This document shows, in pieces, positions 8,957-17,926 of a DNA stretch of 18,911 nt. Numbering within the stretch: position 1 is the stretch's first letter; each line of letters begins with the position of its first letter. The DNA is from a virus. Lineage: Duplodnaviria; Heunggongvirae; Uroviricota; Caudoviricetes. A program made the translations under genes and the position numbers. The stretch is from the IMG/VR virus record IMGVR_UViG_2724679293_000031, positions 1 through 18,911 of that record. The stretch is one strand, 5' to 3'. Under the pieces are notes generated by a model that had not been told where the DNA came from, made no database searches, and was given only the letters and a program-made list of their open reading frames with translations.

Positions 8957-9041
8957 TTCTGCAATTCCGGGACGTTACACTGCTCAGGCACCTTATAAAG
9001 CGGGTGCCGGGATTGGCGTCCTGAAATTCGCACATGCGCAT

Positions 9042-9066
9042 AACCGCGCTTCAGCGGTTTTTTTGC
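9042..9066 (+). terminator. intrinsic terminator upstream of rha
   Basis: AACCGC-GCTTCA-GCGGTT hairpin followed by six more T residues (9060-9065). Confidence 0.45.
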
Positions 9067-9227
9067 GCACGTTTCCTCACATCCAAATTATGGTGGGGCG
9101 TGCAGGGGCATCGAAAGATGCGCCGGGGTCATGTGCGACCGGTTACGCCAACCCTGTACGTCTCACCACCTCTGTGATTGGCGTCCCATGTGGTGAGTTT
9201 TCAAAATTCGCACATGAGGATGTCACT

Positions 9228-9994: not shown

Positions 9995-10830
9995 GTATGG
10001 AGCTGATGGTTAAAGCGATGAAAATTCGAGTGGGTAATCCATTGCGAAAACTGGTTCTGATCAAGCTGGCTGATAATGCCAGCGATCAGGGTGAGTGCTG
10101 GCCCAGCTACCAGCATATTGCTGACCAGTGCGAGATTAGCAAACGTTCTGTGATGAATCATATTGCGGCCCTTTGTGAGTCCGGGCTGGTAAAAAAAGTC
10201 ACCCGGAAAGGTGAAAAAGGTAACTCAAGTAATATCTATCTCCTTCATCTTGATGGTGCAGGAGATTCACTAGGGAGTAGTGCAAATAATTCACTATCTG
10301 GTGCAGCAAATTCACCAGGTAGTGCAGGAGTTGCACTAGGTAGTGCAGGAGTTGCACCAGGGGGTAGTGCAGGAGATTCACCCAGAACCAGTCACTCTTT
10401 TGAACCAGTCAAAGAACCAGTCAATGAACCAATAGCTGTTGGTGCATCTGCTGATGAGTCTGTGCGAGTTCGTTCAAACCGACCGGAATACTCTCCAGAG
10501 TTTGAGCAGGCATGGCTGGCATATCCCAAACGTGCTGGTGGCAATTCAAAATCTGCAGCCTTCAAAGCCTGGAAAGCCCGTTTGAATGAGGGGGTAAACC
10601 CCGAAACCATGCTGGAAGGTGTGAAACGCTACGCGGGCTGGGTATCTGCGATGGGTAACAGCGGCACACAATTTGTGAAACAGGCTGTCACGTTCTTTGG
10701 TCCGGATCGTCATTTCGAAGAATCCTGGGAAGTTCCTGCGGTATCTGTAGCCGGACGTGAGGACCCGTACTTCAAAGCCAGTTACGACAACGTGGACTAC
10801 AGCCAGATCCCGGCAGGATTCAGGGGGTGA
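9991..10830 (+). CDS. O-like replication initiation / replisome-organiser protein with HTH N-terminal domain
   Basis: GGAGG SD. N-terminal HTH typical of phage replication proteins, a Gly/Ser/Ala-rich linker encoded by tandem DNA repeats, and a conserved C-terminal region (…AWKARL…TFFGP…). Confidence 0.6.
   Translation: MSMELMVKAMKIRVGNPLRKLVLIKLADNASDQGECWPSYQHIADQCEISKRSVMNHIAALCESGLVKKVTRKGEKGNSSNIYLLHLDGAGDSLGSSANNSLSGAANSPGSAGVALGSAGVAPGGSAGDSPRTSHSFEPVKEPVNEPIAVGASADESVRVRSNRPEYSPEFEQAWLAYPKRAGGNSKSAAFKAWKARLNEGVNPETMLEGVKRYAGWVSAMGNSGTQFVKQAVTFFGPDRHFEESWEVPAVSVAGREDPYFKASYDNVDYSQIPAGFRG
10255..10433 (+). repeat. iteron-like tandem repeats inside the O-like gene (candidate phage ori)
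   Basis: About six tandem 21-24-bp units with core (A/G)GTGCAGGAG(A/T)T(T/G)CAC (10255-10383), followed by 3.5 copies of GAACCAGTCA (10385-10433). Confidence 0.45.
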
Positions 10831-10832
10831 TC

Positions 10833-11321
10833 ATGAGTCTTTTGAATGACGTTCAGAAATTCATTGAAGCCCATCCGGGGTGTACTTCCGGAGACATTGC
10901 GGATGCTTTTGCAGGTTACTCACGGCAGCGCGTTCTGCGGTCAGCAAGCAAGTTACGTCAGAGCGGGCGTGTGGCTCACCGTTGTGAAGGAGATACACGC
11001 AGACATTTCCCGCGCCTGACTGAGAGAGCGCAGGAACCGGAACCACAACCAGTTCGAGAAACCAGACCTGTGCGCAATTTCTATGTCGGCACTAACGATC
11101 CACGGGTGATTTTGTGCCTGACCCGCCAGGCGGAAGAACTGGAGTCCAGGGGCTTATACCGTCGTGCTGCAACGGTGTGGATGGCGGCATTCCGTGAAAG
11201 CCACTCCCAGCAAGAGCGAAACAATTTTCTGGCGCGTCGTGAGCGGTGCTTACGGAAAAGCAGCAAGCGCGCTGCATCGGGTGAAGAGTGGTATCTGTCA
11301 GGGAATTACGTGGGGGCTTAA
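10833..11321 (+). CDS. PerC-family (Pch-like) transcriptional regulator
   Basis: Start at ATG 10833 with GGGGG SD. ELESRGLYRRAATVW matches the recalled PerC-family signature (E-LE-x-KGLWRRAA-x-RW). Confidence 0.5.
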   Translation: MSLLNDVQKFIEAHPGCTSGDIADAFAGYSRQRVLRSASKLRQSGRVAHRCEGDTRRHFPRLTERAQEPEPQPVRETRPVRNFYVGTNDPRVILCLTRQAEELESRGLYRRAATVWMAAFRESHSQQERNNFLARRERCLRKSSKRAASGEEWYLSGNYVGA

Positions 11322-13173: not shown

Positions 13174-14169
13174 GTGACCGTGAGAGCACTACTGACCCCT
13201 GAAATTGCCCCGCGTATGGGGATCGTATTGTTCAGGCCAGGTTCAGAGCTGATGCCCCTGTTTATGCAGGGGCGTGTCCTGCTGGAGCCTGAGCCGGAGC
13301 GTTATTCATCTTTCGCCAGTGGTGCCGTTCCGGCGGCATCACAACCGCTGGCGGATGATCCTGCCGTTCGGGCCGTGTTCCGCAATGAGGCAGTGATCCG
13401 TCGTGCTGGTGGCGTGGAATGTCTTGAAAGCTGGTTACTTCGTGAAAAAGGCTGCCAGTGGCCTCATTCCGACTGGCACAGCGAGAACATGACCACAATG
13501 CGACACGCTCCGGGTGCAATCCGTCTGTGCTGGCACTGCGATAACCAGCTGCGCGATCAGTTCACGGAACGGCTGGAATCAATGGCAACGGATAACTGTG
13601 CCCGCTGGGTGTTGTCTGTTGTGCGTCGGGATCTCGGTTTTGATGACAGTCACGTTGTGACAATGCCGGAACTGTGCTGGTGGCTGATTCGTAATGATCT
13701 GGCGGATGCCTTACCGGAAAGTGCAGCCCGTAAGGCACTGAGATTACCGAAGCCTGTTGTGCCGTCTGTTACCCGGGAAAGTGACCTTGTGCCTTCGGTT
13801 CCTGCCACCAGCATCATCCAGGATAAGGCGAAAAAGGTGCTGGCGCTGAAAGTGGATCCGGAGTCGCCGGAGTCTTTTATGTTACGCCCAAAACGTCGCC
13901 GCTGGGTTAATGAAAAGTACACGCGCTGGGTTAAGACACAGCCGTGTGCATGTTGTGGAAAGCCCGCTGATGATCCCCACCACCTGATAGGTCACGGTCA
14001 GGGTGGAATGGGAACAAAAGCGCATGACCTTTTTGTGTTGCCTTTGTGCAGAAAGCATCACGACGAGCTGCATGCGGATACCGTGGCATTTGAAGAGAAG
14101 TATGGCTCCCAGCTGGAGCTGATATTTCGTTTTATCGATCGTGCGCTGGCAATTGGCGTGCTGGCCTGA
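13174..14169 (+). CDS. DUF968-family phage protein (HNH-like Cys/His C-terminal motif)
   Basis: C-terminal ...[20 protein letters not shown]...[12 protein letters not shown]... resembles the DUF968 signature. GTG start at 13174 is uncertain (alternative ATG at 13216). Confidence 0.55.
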
Positions 14170-14186
14170 TTTTGTGGAGAAAGTTG

Positions 14187-14552
14187 ATGCGTGATATTCA
14201 AATGGTTCTTGAACGTTGGGGGGCATGGGTGGCAAATAATCACGAGGATGTCACCTGGTCGTCTATTGCTGCAGGATTTAAAGGACTAATCCCTTCAAAA
14301 GTAAAATCCCGCCCGCAATGTTGTGACGATGACGCGATGATCATTTGTGGATGCATGGCTCGCCTGAAAAAGAACAACAGCGATTTGCACGATTTATTAG
14401 TGGATTATTATGTAGGTGGTATGACTTTTATGGCGCTTGCCCGTAAACATGGGCGTTCTGATTGCTGGGTTGGGCGTTTATTGCAAAAGGCTGAAGGTGT
14501 AGTTGATGGCATGTTAATGATGTTAGAAATTGAGCTAGAGATGGATCGTTAG
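14187..14552 (+). CDS. late-gene antiterminator Q (phage 82 / QuuD-like family)
   Basis: Start at ATG 14187 with GGAG 7 nt upstream. [34 protein letters not shown]...[16 protein letters not shown]... matches recalled QuuD-type Q proteins. Confidence 0.65.
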
Positions 14553-14594
14553 AAGACCTCTTATTGAGGGGGTAATTGAATCAGTTTAATGTGT

Positions 14595-14630
14595 GGGGAG
14601 TCGATTTATTCTCCCCATTTTATTTAATTT
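14595..14630 (+). terminator. intrinsic terminator downstream of Q
   Basis: GGGGAG-TCGATTTATT-CTCCCC hairpin followed by ATTTTATTTAATTTATTT. Confidence 0.45.
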
Positions 14631-14632
14631 AT

Positions 14633-15079
14633 TTAAGGTTTTAATTCATCAAGACGTTGTTGGATAGTGTTTTTGCTTGCGTTGTCTGTTATAGACATTT
14701 GTTGTACTTGCCCCATTGCCATTTGAGTTTCCATCCACATATCGGCCCACACTTTTGTATCGTTATTAACTTGAGCGATAGTAAATCTGACTTTTGATAC
14801 CGGGGTTGTTGAATAGGCATTGCCGATTAACATTTGTCCAAAAACAGCAGAGCCGCCTTCCAGTTCTTTACCACATATAACACTGCTGTTATCCGCGTTG
14901 TAAATTATCAACCCTCTACTATTGCAGTAATTCACAAGGGCATCTTTGACTTTATCTTTTGTCGTATTTTGATAAACCCCCTCAGGTTTTCCTGATTGAG
15001 TTTTCTTTATCAATGGTACGGAAGAAGTACAACCTGAAATGATAGTTGCGCTAAGTAATAGTACAGTCATTTTATTCAT
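14633..15079 (-). CDS. lipoprotein of unknown function (moron)
   Basis: N-terminal signal peptide with lipobox (…LLLSATIISGC-TSS); AT-rich gene in opposite orientation to the flanking phage genes. Confidence 0.65.
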   Translation of the reverse strand: MNKMTVLLLSATIISGCTSSVPLIKKTQSGKPEGVYQNTTKDKVKDALVNYCNSRGLIIYNADNSSVICGKELEGGSAVFGQMLIGNAYSTTPVSKVRFTIAQVNNDTKVWADMWMETQMAMGQVQQMSITDNASKNTIQQRLDELKP

Positions 15080-15202
15080 GTTTCTTATCCATTGTTAAGG
15101 GCATACCCACACAATTATTTTTATTGGAGATGAATAATCAACCGTTTACAATCGTAAAAAATCAAATATGCTGTTAAGAGTGGTTACTTCGCCACACAAC
15201 TT

Positions 15203-15228
15203 AAACCCGCCGCTGAGCGGTTTTTTTG
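15203..15228 (+). terminator. intrinsic terminator in a divergent intergenic region
   Basis: AAACCCGCCGCTGAGCGG followed by TTTTTTT (15221-15227). Confidence 0.45.
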
Positions 15229-15351
15229 TACCTGTAAACCTGGTGCAGTACAGTAAACACGCTGGTGGTCGTGAATACTGGCTTTTTATCTTGCTGGCTT
15301 TTTAGACAAGAGTTATTGGTATGTCACGTTAACCGGAAAGGGTAAAAAGAC

Positions 15352-15549
15352 ATGCTGAAACAGCAGGATATGACAGAAACCGCCAGAGTTGTGTTTGATG
15401 AATTAAGCGTTACCGAACCGGCGACAGTCGGGGAGATTGCGCAGAATACTTACCTTTCACGCGAACGCTGCCAGTTAATACTGACCCAGCTTGTTATGGC
15501 GGGTCTGGCAGACTATCAGTGCGGTTGTTACAGACGCCTTCAGTCCTGA
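15352..15549 (+). CDS. FaeA/PapI-like small winged-helix regulator (tentative)
   Basis: 65-aa ORF; pattern ...TARVVFDELSVTEPATVGEIAQNTYLSRERCQLILTQLVMAGL resembles PapI/FaeA-family proteins (recalled). Confidence 0.45.
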   Translation: MLKQQDMTETARVVFDELSVTEPATVGEIAQNTYLSRERCQLILTQLVMAGLADYQCGCYRRLQS

Positions 15550-15617
15550 AGGCTTTTTATTTGTGGTGAATGGGCGGCTGGTGGGGGGGCGACACCTGTC
15601 AGTCCTTTGCTTATGTG

Positions 15618-15648
15618 TTGATGATAATTTACCTTTTGGGGCTATAAT
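15618..15648 (+). promoter_or_regulatory. candidate sigma70 promoter upstream of the AraC-family gene
   Basis: Perfect TATAAT at 15643-15648 with TTGATG about 19 nt upstream; the spacer is longer than optimal. Confidence 0.3.
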
Positions 15649-15683
15649 TGAGCTAACCAATTGCTAATGAAAGTAAAATTATA

Positions 15684-16397
15684 ATGGCTGTTGTCTGTTC
15701 AGTTATCATGGTTTGCTCCCCAATTAATATTTTTCTTGAAAAGGATACGTTGTCACTTAAGCCAGGCTCAGTTGTTCTGGCCACCAAATGCATCAGGGAG
15801 CTTTTCCTTATGCATTATGGCAAAGTTAAAATTGTCGATATAAGCGAATCCGTCGTAAGTCAATATCTGGAAAGTCAGCATAAGCTGACGAGGACTCGTC
15901 TGACTGACATTCCGCTTTACCTGTTGCTGGAACCCAACAATCCTGCGTTGGCTGCGGCTTTAATTACCAGCCAGGGATTTTCCGGAGAGGCCACGGATAT
16001 GTTTCTTATGATGGCCTGCCTGTCTCTGTTTGAAACAGATGAACGGATGTCATTGTTTTTAAGTGGATGTTTATCCAGCATAAGTGCCAAAGTCAGGGCG
16101 ATAATTCAGACAGATATATCAGCAAGCTGGACGCTTGGTGCGATTGCTCTACAGTTGCATATGAGTGAGAGTTTGTTAAAGACAAAACTGAAAAATGAAG
16201 GGGGCATGTTCAGTCGCTTGTTGCTGGAAGAGCGGATGCGTGTTGCTGTAAATATGTTATGTTCCCGGCATGGATATGGACAGGCTATAGCAGAAAAATG
16301 CGGTTATTCAAGCAGGTCCTACTTTATTTCTGTATTTCACCGCTATTATGGCTTCCCGCCAGACAGATATGTATCCAGGCAAGGGCTTGATTATTGA
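15684..16397 (+). CDS. AraC-family transcriptional regulator, AppY-like (no ligand-binding cupin evident)
   Basis: C-terminal AraC-type HTH (…WTLGAIALQLHMSESLLKTKLKNEGGMFSRLLLEERMRVAVNMLCS…GYSSRSYFISVFHRYYGFPP). N-terminus MAVVCSVIMVC resembles recalled AppY (MDYVCSVVFIC). Confidence 0.7.
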   Translation: MAVVCSVIMVCSPINIFLEKDTLSLKPGSVVLATKCIRELFLMHYGKVKIVDISESVVSQYLESQHKLTRTRLTDIPLYLLLEPNNPALAAALITSQGFSGEATDMFLMMACLSLFETDERMSLFLSGCLSSISAKVRAIIQTDISASWTLGAIALQLHMSESLLKTKLKNEGGMFSRLLLEERMRVAVNMLCSRHGYGQAIAEKCGYSSRSYFISVFHRYYGFPPDRYVSRQGLDY

Positions 16398-16425
16398 TTT
16401 TCATCTGATTATTATTTTTTGGCTC

Positions 16426-16501
16426 GGCCCTTTAGCTCAGTGGTGAGAGCGAGCGACTCATAATCGCCAGGTCGCTGGTTCAAATCCAGCAAGGGCCACC
16501 A
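16426..16501 (+). tRNA. tRNA with CAU anticodon, most likely tRNA-Ile2 (lysidine-type, ileX/ileZ-like); tRNA-Met not excluded
   Basis: 76 nt folds as a cloverleaf: acceptor GGCCCTT/AAGGGCC, anticodon loop CTCATAA, T-loop TTCAAAT, 3' CCA. Nearly matches the recalled E. coli ileX sequence. Confidence 0.85.
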
Positions 16502-16602
16502 TCACAAACCGCCATTAGCTTATCAGGAAGAGCAGACGACACGATAACAGGGTTGTTGGTGCGGGGGGCGGGTCCCCGATGGCGATCCATTATCGGTATT
16601 CA

Positions 16603-16679
16603 GCGTTGTTAGCTCAGCCGGACAGAGCAATTGCCTTCTAAGCAATCGGTCACTGGTTCGAATCCAGTACAGCGCGCCA
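16603..16679 (+). tRNA. tRNA-Arg (UCU anticodon; reads AGA)
   Basis: 77 nt cloverleaf: acceptor GCGTTGT/ACAGCGC, anticodon stem ATTGC/GCAAT with loop CTTCTAA, T-loop TTCGAAT, 3' CCA. Confidence 0.85.
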
Positions 16680-16789
16680 TATTCATTCTTCCAGATTCCT
16701 TCCGGCAGAGCCTTATACTGAAATATACCTGGCTCAGGATATTGTTGAAAATATTATATGTTTGTCAAAAATAAAAGTTCTGTTAAGTA

Positions 16790-17143
16790 TTGATTGAATA
16801 TTTGTTATACGGTCTAATGGTTTTTTCAGCATTAAATATTTATCATTCATATGGTGTGGGTAGAGTGAATATTGATGAGGCGTCGGGGTGTTTCATCCTT
16901 AGGCAGCGTATTGATATAGTCAATGCAGCACGAGCAAAGGCCTTCAGCCGTTTGACAGTTTTGTTCTGTACTCCTGATCGTCTTTCGGGAAGAGACGTTA
17001 TTATTCTGAATAGTGATGCTATACAGAGGGTTTGCGATGAGTTCATGGTTGCTAATTCAGAATTATTTGCTCTTGTTCAGGAGTACAACAGAATAGCCAG
17101 GACCTGTGGTATGGATGAACTTCGGATTACTCATCTGGGGTAG
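16790..17143 (+). CDS. hypothetical protein (117 aa), uncertain start and coding status
   Basis: ORF begins at TTG with no clear SD; internal ATG 16817 or GTG 16856/16865 are alternative starts. No family recognised. Confidence 0.3.
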   Translation: MIEYLLYGLMVFSALNIYHSYGVGRVNIDEASGCFILRQRIDIVNAARAKAFSRLTVLFCTPDRLSGRDVIILNSDAIQRVCDEFMVANSELFALVQEYNRIARTCGMDELRITHLG

Positions 17144-17590: not shown

Positions 17591-17926
17591 TTATGGATTT
17601 TGTTGTTTTAGCCCATAAGGACATATTTGCAGAGTGCAACGGTTATTAAAGCATTCATTCAATACGTTATCTGTATTTGTAGGGCATTCCTGGCTGTTTT
17701 TGATTAAATTCCAGAATGTTTTATTGAATGGTACTATGTTGTAAATGGTTACAGGTAGCACTTTGTTATTGAGCATGATACCTGTGTGAGTCAGTGTAAA
17801 TATACTTTCAGGAGGTAAGAAAGCATCCGATTGATACCAGATTATTAATTTTATTTTACTCCATATGACTGAAAAAGATATTCCGCATGATGGCTGGATA
17901 ACTGTATCAATCACAATCCACTTCAT
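17591..17926 (-). CDS. hypothetical protein (111 aa) in AT-rich island
   Basis: AAGGAAAG SD 5 nt upstream of the ATG; local GC roughly one third by eye (not computed), contrasting with the flanking phage genes; five Cys residues; no family recognised. Confidence 0.45.

Follow-up and report, generated by a model that had tools for sequence, protein, structure and literature searches.

Three modules very likely joined by chance in the late-regulatory region of a dusA-adjacent Escherichia coli lambdoid prophage carrying a probable psrB allele

The window, i.e. the whole stretch of 18,911 nucleotides that was analyzed, stems from a mosaic lambdoid prophage of E. coli. Its section from 14100 to 16700 is 100% identical to the chromosome of a bovine E. 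coli strain (NZ_CP074756), in which the adjoining annotation comprises phage tail genes, an integrase gene next to dusA, nleG7 and PerC-family genes. nleG7 and two PerC-family genes are carried by the source prophage. As reported in a preliminary description of this DNA, three open reading frames encoding a lipoprotein, a small protein and an AraC-family regulator are located between the late antiterminator gene Q and the phage tRNA genes. The respective products in NZ_CP074756 are WP_001038609.1 (lipoprotein), WP_000917737.1 (small ORF) and WP_000301785.1 (AraC), and each of these exact protein sequences occurs on at least 1000 contigs of a public collection. The flanks were also described correctly. 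Q (14172..14552, plus strand) encodes 126 aa from a TTG start codon and matches PF06530 (E=2e-51), while the NCBI annotation places its start at an ATG at 14187. On the other side, a tRNA gene with the anticodon CAT (16426..16501, plus strand), annotated by NCBI as tRNA-Ile, is followed by a gene for tRNA-Arg(TCT) (16603..16679, plus strand). None of the three genes in between has a known lysis or structural role. All promoters and terminators assigned below to the window are consensus matches or were deduced by homology.

The Q protein revealed 83% identity to Q of H-19B and 80% identity to Q of Sp5 (over 122 aa). It belongs to the Q family of H-19B and Sakai Sp5 and lacks the last ~18 codons of these genes; the DNA homology to H-19B breaks off at the stop codon of Q in the window. 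Farther downstream, a block of 89 bp (15144..15232, plus strand) is 80% identical to the H-19B sequence between the stop codon of Q and the first hairpin, the latter included. Homology and a consensus scan suggest that it contains the late promoter pR', with the -35 element TTTACA (15145-15150), the -10 element TATGCT (15167-15172) and a transcription start near 15179, and the first hairpin with its T-run (15207-15228). Local BLASTN recovered this block, whereas global alignment of the two sequences with MAFFT put it in the wrong place. The homologous elements of Sp5 are TTTACG and TATCAT, with a start 22 nt past the Q stop codon. These positions reproduce the published transcript of 258 nt between pR' and tR' of Sp5 as well as the position of its RNase E site GU|AUU at +173 (PMC7547250). 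The published coordinates of the Sakai promoter (1,266,203 to 1,266,460) are shifted by ~142 bp relative to NC_002695.2, and pR' was re-anchored by means of the RNase E site and the length reported for the transcript. Q of the window is thus predicted to be an antiterminator of the H-19B/933W type with a cognate pR'. A second terminator-like hairpin (15261..15290, plus strand), detected by the consensus scan, marks the start of sequence common to thousands of lambdoid prophages. This hairpin is a candidate tR'; as the first one falls within the mapped 258-nt transcript of Sp5, either of the two may act as tR' in the window. Directly after Q, another promoter-like sequence, TTGAGG-17-TAATGT (14564-14592), was considered as pR' and rejected because it is not conserved in H-19B and Sp5 and because its start site would fall inside the adjoining hairpin. 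The latter (14595..14622, plus strand) possesses a T-run, lies between the convergent Q and lipoprotein genes and may act as a terminator. The whole arrangement resembles the pR'-tR' leader of the Stx phages H-19B, Sp5 and Sp15, from which the small RNA StxS is derived (PMC7547250), in that Q is of the same family and the promoter and the initial transcribed region are homologous. By contrast, the window contains a segment of 592 bp with the lipoprotein gene between Q and the promoter. Moreover, as the homology to the Stx-phage leader ends after the first hairpin, the 74-nt 3' portion of StxS is missing.

The lipoprotein gene (14633..15079, minus strand) encodes 148 aa and matches phrog_3152 (E=3e-104). 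Its product starts with MNKMTVLLLSATIISGC and contains the lipobox I-S-G-C, which agrees with the pattern [LVI][ASTVI][GAS]C, with Cys17 followed by Thr at position +2. Cys17 is invariant and the signal-peptide architecture is kept in 19 homologues from several genera, so that the designation as a lipoprotein is well founded. The G+C content over the gene is 0.37-0.39, compared to 0.52-0.58 upstream. A promoter-like site, TTGATT-16-AATAAT (15114..15141, minus strand), was detected by the consensus scan back to back with the -35 element of pR' and may drive the gene. The preliminary description had assumed that all three genes lie in the path of late transcription. This probably applies to the small ORF and the AraC gene but not to the lipoprotein gene, which is situated between Q and the putative pR' and, hence, would be outside the late transcript. 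Its distribution is that of an accessory gene. Among 5426 complete E. coli genomes, 185 (~3%) contain it in full, and it is missing at the homologous position in H-19B, Sp5 and EDL933 OI-57. Together with the same Q it occurs in the phages PhiR40_1 and PhiR55_1. Prophages of Salmonella, Citrobacter and Jejubacter carry homologues with 57-72% identity within their tail modules, and further ones are located in an early region of Phytobacter and on a contig of Enterobacter that also bears P1-type DarA/DdrB genes. The gene is a true add-on gene (moron) that is mobile among enterobacterial prophages, in line with its initial classification as cargo. A comparable case is bor of phage lambda, which, like other add-on genes of late regions, is a small AT-rich lipoprotein gene oriented opposite to the flanking phage genes and probably expressed by the prophage. 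Both AT-rich genes oppose their neighbours in the late-regulatory region. They are unrelated in sequence, since the Pfam family Lambda_Bor was not matched, and the insertion in the window differs in that it separates Q from its promoter and lies upstream of pR'.

What the lipoprotein does can be approached by its predicted structure and its genomic contexts. It did not match any Pfam, NCBIfam or PADLOC family. The AlphaFold model (pLDDT 85.7) predicts a helix-grip alpha/beta domain with weak similarity to the N-terminal domain of BamC. In a search of the PDB, this domain and DUF4468 were the best, albeit weak, matches (E ~2e-3, TM 0.43-0.55), while a viral structure library likewise yielded weak helix-grip matches, none of them at E<=0.001. 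Most likely, the protein is an outer-membrane-anchored, periplasm-facing factor of lysogenic conversion. Tentatively, the phrog_3152 lipoproteins might represent a new kind of mobile conversion factor with an outer-membrane-anchored helix-grip domain of weakly BamC-like fold, which acts on an envelope machine or receptor of the host, e.g. by excluding other phages or modulating the assembly of outer membrane proteins, and which has been inserted at many positions in temperate phages of Enterobacterales. A narrower proposal is superinfection exclusion, in which the lipoprotein would block the outer-membrane receptor recognized by the tail tip of its own carrier phage. Llp of T5 and the Cor proteins block phage receptors in this way, and a place in the tail module near the J gene is typical of them. 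Three of the six homologue contexts are indeed inside tail modules near J, and the protein is prophage-borne and, lacking Asp at +2, carries the signal for sorting to the outer membrane. On the other hand, no PADLOC defence model was matched, the structural searches did not yield any known exclusion protein at a significant level, and some copies of the gene belong to an early region or to a P1-type element. The tail proteins provide further counter-evidence. Carriers of lipoproteins that are 70-72% identical possess unrelated C-terminal receptor-binding domains of J, whereas a related C-terminal domain of J (66% identity) is present in an EDL933 prophage that has no copy of the lipoprotein; a receptor-binding domain of J common to the lipoprotein-carrying phages was looked for and not found. 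Blocking of the carrier's own receptor is therefore a doubtful explanation.

The AraC gene (15684..16397, plus strand) encodes a regulator of 237 aa belonging to the GadW/GadX/YdeO/AppY subgroup of the AraC/XylS family. Two stretches of the protein match HTH_AraC (PF00165, E=2.4e-13) and residues 155-230 match HTH_18 (PF12833, E=5.8e-10), which predicts a C-terminal DNA-binding domain with a double helix-turn-helix. A promoter-like site, ATGATA-16-TATAAT (15621..15648, plus strand; 10 of 12 positions in the scan), is located 36 nt upstream of the start codon. GadW, GadX, YdeO and AppY are AraC-family regulators of the acid-resistance system AR2 in K-12, and AppY lies on the prophage DLP12. Full-length homology and the two-domain layout are shared with these proteins and so, according to the literature, are target regulons. 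In BLASTP comparisons with the K-12 paralogues, the full-length identity was 35% to GadW, 31% to YdeO and 29% to AppY, while the C-terminal half showed 41% identity to GadX. The NCBIfam scores were far below the cut-offs (YdeO as the best model with 108.5 bits against 348, GadX with 87 against 500), and no AppY model was among the matches. The protein is accordingly a paralogue and not an orthologue of GadW, GadX, YdeO and AppY, and its previous characterization as AppY-like is loosely right as a statement of similarity but does not hold as one of orthology.

A much closer relative was found in EDL933. The protein is identical at 234 of 237 positions (99%) to the product of the only AraC gene of OI-57 (region of NZ_CP008957), the rest of the island containing no other AraC homologue. 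In OI-57, z2104 has been designated psrB, one of the genes for prophage-encoded secretion regulators (Psr) of the AraC/XylS family (PMC10877973, PMC8565820), and island coordinates and gene order indicate that the AraC gene found there is z2104. PsrB activates the acid-resistance genes gadE and hdeA and indirectly represses type III secretion, as described for the EDL933 and Sakai proteins (PMC10877973, PMC8565820). Thus, the suggestion that the AraC gene is cargo able to rewire stress or virulence regulons of the host agrees with experiments reported for an almost identical protein in the same two reviews; as the gene is essentially psrB, it is known and not new. Both loci share the order small ORF, AraC gene, tRNA-Ile, tRNA-Arg, and the source prophage matches the published association of psr genes with effector-carrying lambdoid prophages that also possess PerC/Pch-family regulators. 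Differences to EDL933 are three substitutions in PsrB (A103V, H196Y, I202V), another Q module upstream, the additional lipoprotein gene and the host, a bovine strain of unreported serotype. The Psr comparison was made with PsrB. For psrA (z1789), no AraC homologue was present in the sections covered, up to but not including the right-hand ends, of Sakai Sp6 and of the potC-integrated prophage of resequenced EDL933, the expected OI-50.

The small ORF (15352..15549, plus strand) encodes 65 aa, is conserved (phrog_331, E=6e-37) and predicted to be a helical protein of winged-helix type. No family in Pfam or NCBIfam was matched above threshold. Sub-threshold Pfam matches were TrmB (best, E=0.003), MarR and DprA_WH, whereas a match to FaeA or PapI was not obtained even at E<=10, so that the label PapI/FaeA-like finds no support in the sequence. 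The AlphaFold model (pLDDT 82) is helical without a modelled beta-wing. Fold searches returned winged-helix proteins only, all of them non-significant. The PapI homologue PefI (2jt1) ranked sixth (TM 0.67/0.62, rmsd 1.8 A, E 1.1), with many unrelated winged-helix proteins scoring alike. The gene is present in Stx2a, Stx2c and Stx2d phages, phiP27 and SfV, as well as in Klebsiella, Salmonella and Citrobacter prophages. Of 5426 complete E. coli genomes, 2846 gave a match to a query comprising the small ORF and the AraC gene, and those partial matches that were listed are confined to the small-ORF end of this query. Since these genomes mostly lack the AraC gene, the small ORF looks like a gene of the phage backbone and not like cargo. 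A terminator-like hairpin (15536..15561, plus strand) predicted by the consensus scan overlaps its stop codon.

The distribution of the genes in other prophages is informative as to whether they belong together. Just 19 of 5426 complete E. coli genomes contain the entire query, which extends from Q to the tRNAs, and 725 contain the small ORF together with the AraC gene. In EDL933 OI-57, the homology to the window begins near 15240, and the small ORF, the AraC gene and the tRNAs are located behind a different Q-like gene without the lipoprotein. PhiR40_1 combines the same Q and the lipoprotein with a small ORF of 51% identity and, behind it, a methylase, and is devoid of the AraC gene. The other prophage of OI-57 contains the small ORF, a methylase and the tRNAs, and in an Stx2k phage, Q of a third type precedes the small ORF, an AraC gene (92% identical), the tRNAs and stx2. 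Each of the three genes hence occurs without the others, and the idea of one regulatory cargo cluster could not be upheld. A more elaborate form of it would be a co-selected regulatory island in which the small winged-helix-type protein is a co-regulator of the AraC protein, in the way PapI is of Lrp, and the lipoprotein is a target or partner. The three genes are adjacent, all loci examined that carry the AraC gene have the small ORF directly upstream of it, and PefI, whose fold is of the PapI type, ranked near the top in the fold search. Nevertheless, such an island is highly improbable. Genomes matching the small ORF outnumber those with the AraC gene about fourfold, and in other phages the ORF is followed by methylases or other genes. 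A terminator-like hairpin and a further promoter-like site separate it from the AraC gene, its sequence lacks a FaeA/PapI match, and most psr loci are without the lipoprotein. That the 65-aa frame is a chance ORF within a conserved late-leader RNA is hardly credible at all: it is short, follows the pR'/terminator region directly and has no above-threshold family in Pfam or NCBIfam, but it is retained at full length with 78-92% amino acid identity in Klebsiella, Salmonella, Citrobacter and Buttiauxella, is still intact in the 51% identical version of PhiR40_1 and combines the phrog_331 match with a confident helical model.

It is very likely, then, that three modules, which assort independently of one another, meet here in the late-regulatory region of a dusA-adjacent E. 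coli lambdoid prophage, and that the AraC gene is psrB. Module A (~14172-15232) would comprise Q and its presumed cognate pR' with the AT-rich reverse lipoprotein gene inserted between them. This insertion would have replaced the last ~18 codons of a Q type of 144 aa, and the lipoprotein gene would presumably use a promoter of its own in the lysogen. Module B (from ~15240) would be the common lambdoid backbone past pR' with the terminator-like hairpins and, thereafter, the 65-aa gene. Module C would be a variable slot between the small gene and the tRNAs, here occupied by a psrB allele with its own promoter-like site; in other phages, this slot is filled by a DNA methylase. By homology to PsrB (99% identity), the AraC protein is expected to bind the gadE and hdeA promoters and to switch on glutamate-dependent acid resistance. 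Through GadE and YhiF, it would lower LEE type III secretion. In a secondary and tentative reading, PsrB, a nearby IraM-family anti-adaptor and the PerC/Pch regulators of the same prophage may act jointly as a stress-response package supplied by the phage, with RpoS and GadE as points of convergence.

The apparent cluster is very probably a chance juxtaposition of three modules, in which the small gene is a conserved part of the late-leader backbone. Of the initial reading as regulatory cargo, the AraC regulator (PsrB) and the lipoprotein persist, while the PapI/FaeA label and the single cluster are not supported. The finding is largely ordinary, the function of PsrB being already known and this exact allele being common. 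For enterohaemorrhagic E. coli, it is established that PsrA and PsrB increase acid resistance and adjust type III secretion, and, according to published work, PsrA contributes to persistence in ruminants.

The window is a portion of an E. coli lambdoid prophage. Its positions 14100-16700 match the chromosome of the bovine strain F2_407_2_2 (NZ_CP074756) at 100% identity, and a cattle isolate of O157:H7 showed 98.3% identity to the same stretch. According to the annotation, the adjacent chromosome contains phage tail genes, an integrase adjoining dusA, the effector gene nleG7 and PerC-family regulator genes. Three ORFs are present as the preliminary description had presented them: a lipoprotein gene (148 aa, 14633-15079, reverse strand), in which the G+C content dips to 0.37-0.39, a small ORF (65 aa, 15352-15549) and an AraC-family gene (237 aa, 15684-16397). 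They are flanked on one side by Q (PF06530, E=2e-51), and on the other by tRNA(CAT), a tRNA-Ile in the NCBI annotation, and tRNA-Arg(TCT). The tRNA spacer (16502-16602) has 101 nt, and only this one tRNA-Arg follows tRNA(CAT) in the window. Most close relatives have two annotated tRNA-Arg genes, as in Sakai Sp5 and the Stx2k phage, which harbor TCG and TCT copies, whereas O-island 57 (OI-57) of EDL933 shares the one-Arg form with the window.

The three genes had been regarded as one regulatory cargo cluster. The pieces are, however, each also found apart from the others, and the whole set, Q through tRNAs, was present in only 19 of 5426 complete E. coli genomes. OI-57, to which homology of the window starts near 15240, possesses a different Q-like gene followed by the small ORF, psrB and the tRNAs, but lacks the lipoprotein gene. 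In the Stx2k phage, a third Q type precedes the small ORF, an AraC-family gene (92% identical), three tRNAs and stx2AB, while PhiR40_1 shares Q and the lipoprotein gene with the window but carries a methylase gene where the window has the AraC-family gene. The arrangement is thus a mosaic junction and not a functional unit.

For the AraC-family protein, a double helix-turn-helix was detected by Pfam. The best-ranked NCBIfam models (YdeO, GadX and HilD) each scored far under the orthologue cut-off, and identities to K-12 proteins were 35% (GadW), 31% (YdeO) and 29% (AppY) over the full length and 41% (GadX) over the C-terminal half. EDL933 encodes two prophage AraC-like regulators, PsrA (z1789, O-island 50) and PsrB (z2104, O-island 57). 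Both upregulate gadE and yhiF, with repression of type III secretion as a consequence, and PsrB also confers increased acid resistance and binds at the promoters of hdeA and gadE (PMC10877973, PMC8565820). The OI-57 region of resequenced EDL933 (NZ_CP008957) contains exactly one AraC-family gene, whose product is identical to the window protein at 234 of 237 positions. From the island coordinates and our count of the gene order, we infer that this gene is z2104 (psrB). The exact protein sequence was found on at least 1000 public contigs, and its 90% cluster comprises 2285 members. The AraC-family gene is real and biologically meaningful and, as the probable psrB, already known. Because of the 99% identity, the published PsrB mechanism may be assigned to the window protein, which would activate gadE and hdeA directly and repress the LEE indirectly via GadE and YhiF.

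The small ORF is a backbone gene rather than cargo, for which its genome distribution is decisive. A query comprising the small ORF and the AraC-family gene matched 2846 of the 5426 complete E. coli genomes but both parts were present in only 725, and the partial matches listed covered the small-ORF end alone. The small ORF is also present in Stx2a, Stx2c and Stx2d phages, phiP27 and SfV as well as in Klebsiella, Salmonella, Citrobacter and Buttiauxella prophages; in other phages, a DNA methylase gene lies 3' of it in place of the AraC-family gene. A terminator-like hairpin spans its stop codon; 5' of the AraC-family gene is a promoter-like site (10/12 matches). The protein belongs to phrog_331 (E=6e-37). 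It had been described as PapI/FaeA-like, yet a Pfam search, even at E<=10, gave no FaeA/PapI match, and winged-helix families matched below threshold only (top: TrmB, E=0.003). The AlphaFold model is helical (pLDDT 82) and a PDB fold search yielded nothing at E<0.5. Since the fold list consisted mostly of winged-helix domains and included the PapI homologue PefI (TM 0.67), the likeness is at best a fold-level analogy. Given its fixed place just after the late promoter region, one may speculate that the small protein has a role in late gene expression.

The lipoprotein gene had been placed in the path of the late transcripts. Local alignment with H-19B gave two blocks, one in which the Q genes align as far as the window Q stop codon, and a second in which window positions 15144-15232 are 80% identical to an H-19B stretch that begins in the last Q codons and extends to the first hairpin. 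Between these blocks lie 592 bp with the lipoprotein gene, in place of the 56 bp that in H-19B code for the C-terminal end of the 144-aa Q. The homologous late promoter pR' of Sakai Sp5 (-35 TTTACG, -10 TATCAT) has its transcription start 22 nt past the Q stop codon; placed in this way, the elements reproduce the published 258-nt RNA between pR' and its terminator tR' as well as the published RNase E site (GU|AUU, +173; PMC7547250). By homology, the window pR' would comprise a -35 box (15145-15150) and a -10 box (15167-15172), with transcription starting near 15179, so that the lipoprotein gene probably lies upstream of pR' and would not be crossed by late transcripts. The StxS portion (74 nt) of the Stx phage late leader is not conserved in the window. 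The Sp5 pR' and tR' coordinates in PMC7547250 (1,266,203 and 1,266,460) are about 142 bp below the matching features of NC_002695.2; presumably, a different reference version was used. The window Q (14172-14552) has 126 aa and is a shortened form of the 144-aa H-19B/933W-type Q (compared with L010:1503-1937, a sequence encoding the latter), about 18 C-terminal residues having been replaced by the lipoprotein insertion. The truncated Q also occurs, 99% identical, in PhiR40_1, which suggests that it is functional.

The N-terminus of the lipoprotein (MNKMTVLLLSATIISGC) is a standard lipoprotein signal, and its Cys is invariant across 19 homologues, which bears out the original call. The family (phrog_3152) had no match in Pfam, NCBIfam or PADLOC. 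Its AlphaFold model shows an alpha/beta helix-grip domain (pLDDT 85.7) with weak top matches to the BamC N-terminal domain and DUF4468 (E ~2e-3, TM 0.43-0.55); the viral structure library gave no significant fold match. The full gene segment was found in 185 of the 5426 genomes and in the phage records PhiR40_1 and PhiR55_1, 3' of the same Q and in the same reverse orientation. Homologues with 57-72% identity are part of the tail module in prophages of Salmonella, Citrobacter and Jejubacter; others belong to an early region in Phytobacter or share an Enterobacter contig with DarA/DdrB genes of the P1 type. The gene is a mobile add-on placed between Q and the predicted late promoter. Its spread over diverse temperate elements suggests a conversion factor expressed in the lysogen, and the absence of Asp at +2 suggests that the protein is sorted to the outer membrane. 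In carrier phages whose lipoproteins share 70-72% identity, the receptor-binding domains at the C-terminus of J are unrelated, and the gene is missing from a prophage whose J C-terminal domain is related (66% identical); a superinfection-exclusion factor matched to the carrier phage's own receptor is therefore not favoured. Exclusion of other phages has a low probability.

Of the preliminary description, the observation stands, but the interpretation only in part: the AraC and lipoprotein calls hold, unlike the PapI-like label, the single cluster and the late-transcript placement of the lipoprotein gene.

Further features were detected nearby. In the prophage early region (8988-9173, forward strand), a match to isrK (RF01394, 62 bits) adjoins one to the C4 antisense RNA (RF01695, 75 bits); these belong to the P1/P7-type antisense system controlling an antirepressor. 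A 117-aa ORF (16790-17143, forward strand; phrog_2873) directly follows the tRNAs, the position of the stx genes in Stx phages. A strong Rfam match to the small RNA STnc100 (RF02076; 17376-17565, forward strand; 132 bits, gathering score 47) is located between the tRNAs and a gene for an IraM-family RssB anti-adaptor (111 aa, 17591-17926, reverse strand; NF007393, E=5e-48, over the cut-off). Oriented opposite to psrB, the latter gene follows it at a distance of 1.2 kb, and phiSTEC1575-Stx2k carries a 73% identical copy directly after stx2AB. IraM is encoded on a prophage and IraL on a genomic island (PMC4045071). The source prophage contains two PerC/Pch-family genes, one in the replication region (window about 10500-10990, forward strand; L001:2400-2894) and one between the lysis and terminase genes (L020:35260-35574, in the adjoining chromosome, as is nleG7 at L020:11481-12131), in line with published reports that psr genes are associated with pch genes and effector loci. 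The main element, psrB, had been described before, and the arrangement is ordinary mosaicism. With PsrB and the IraM-like protein, the prophage would carry two factors that act on the stress responses of RpoS and GadE.
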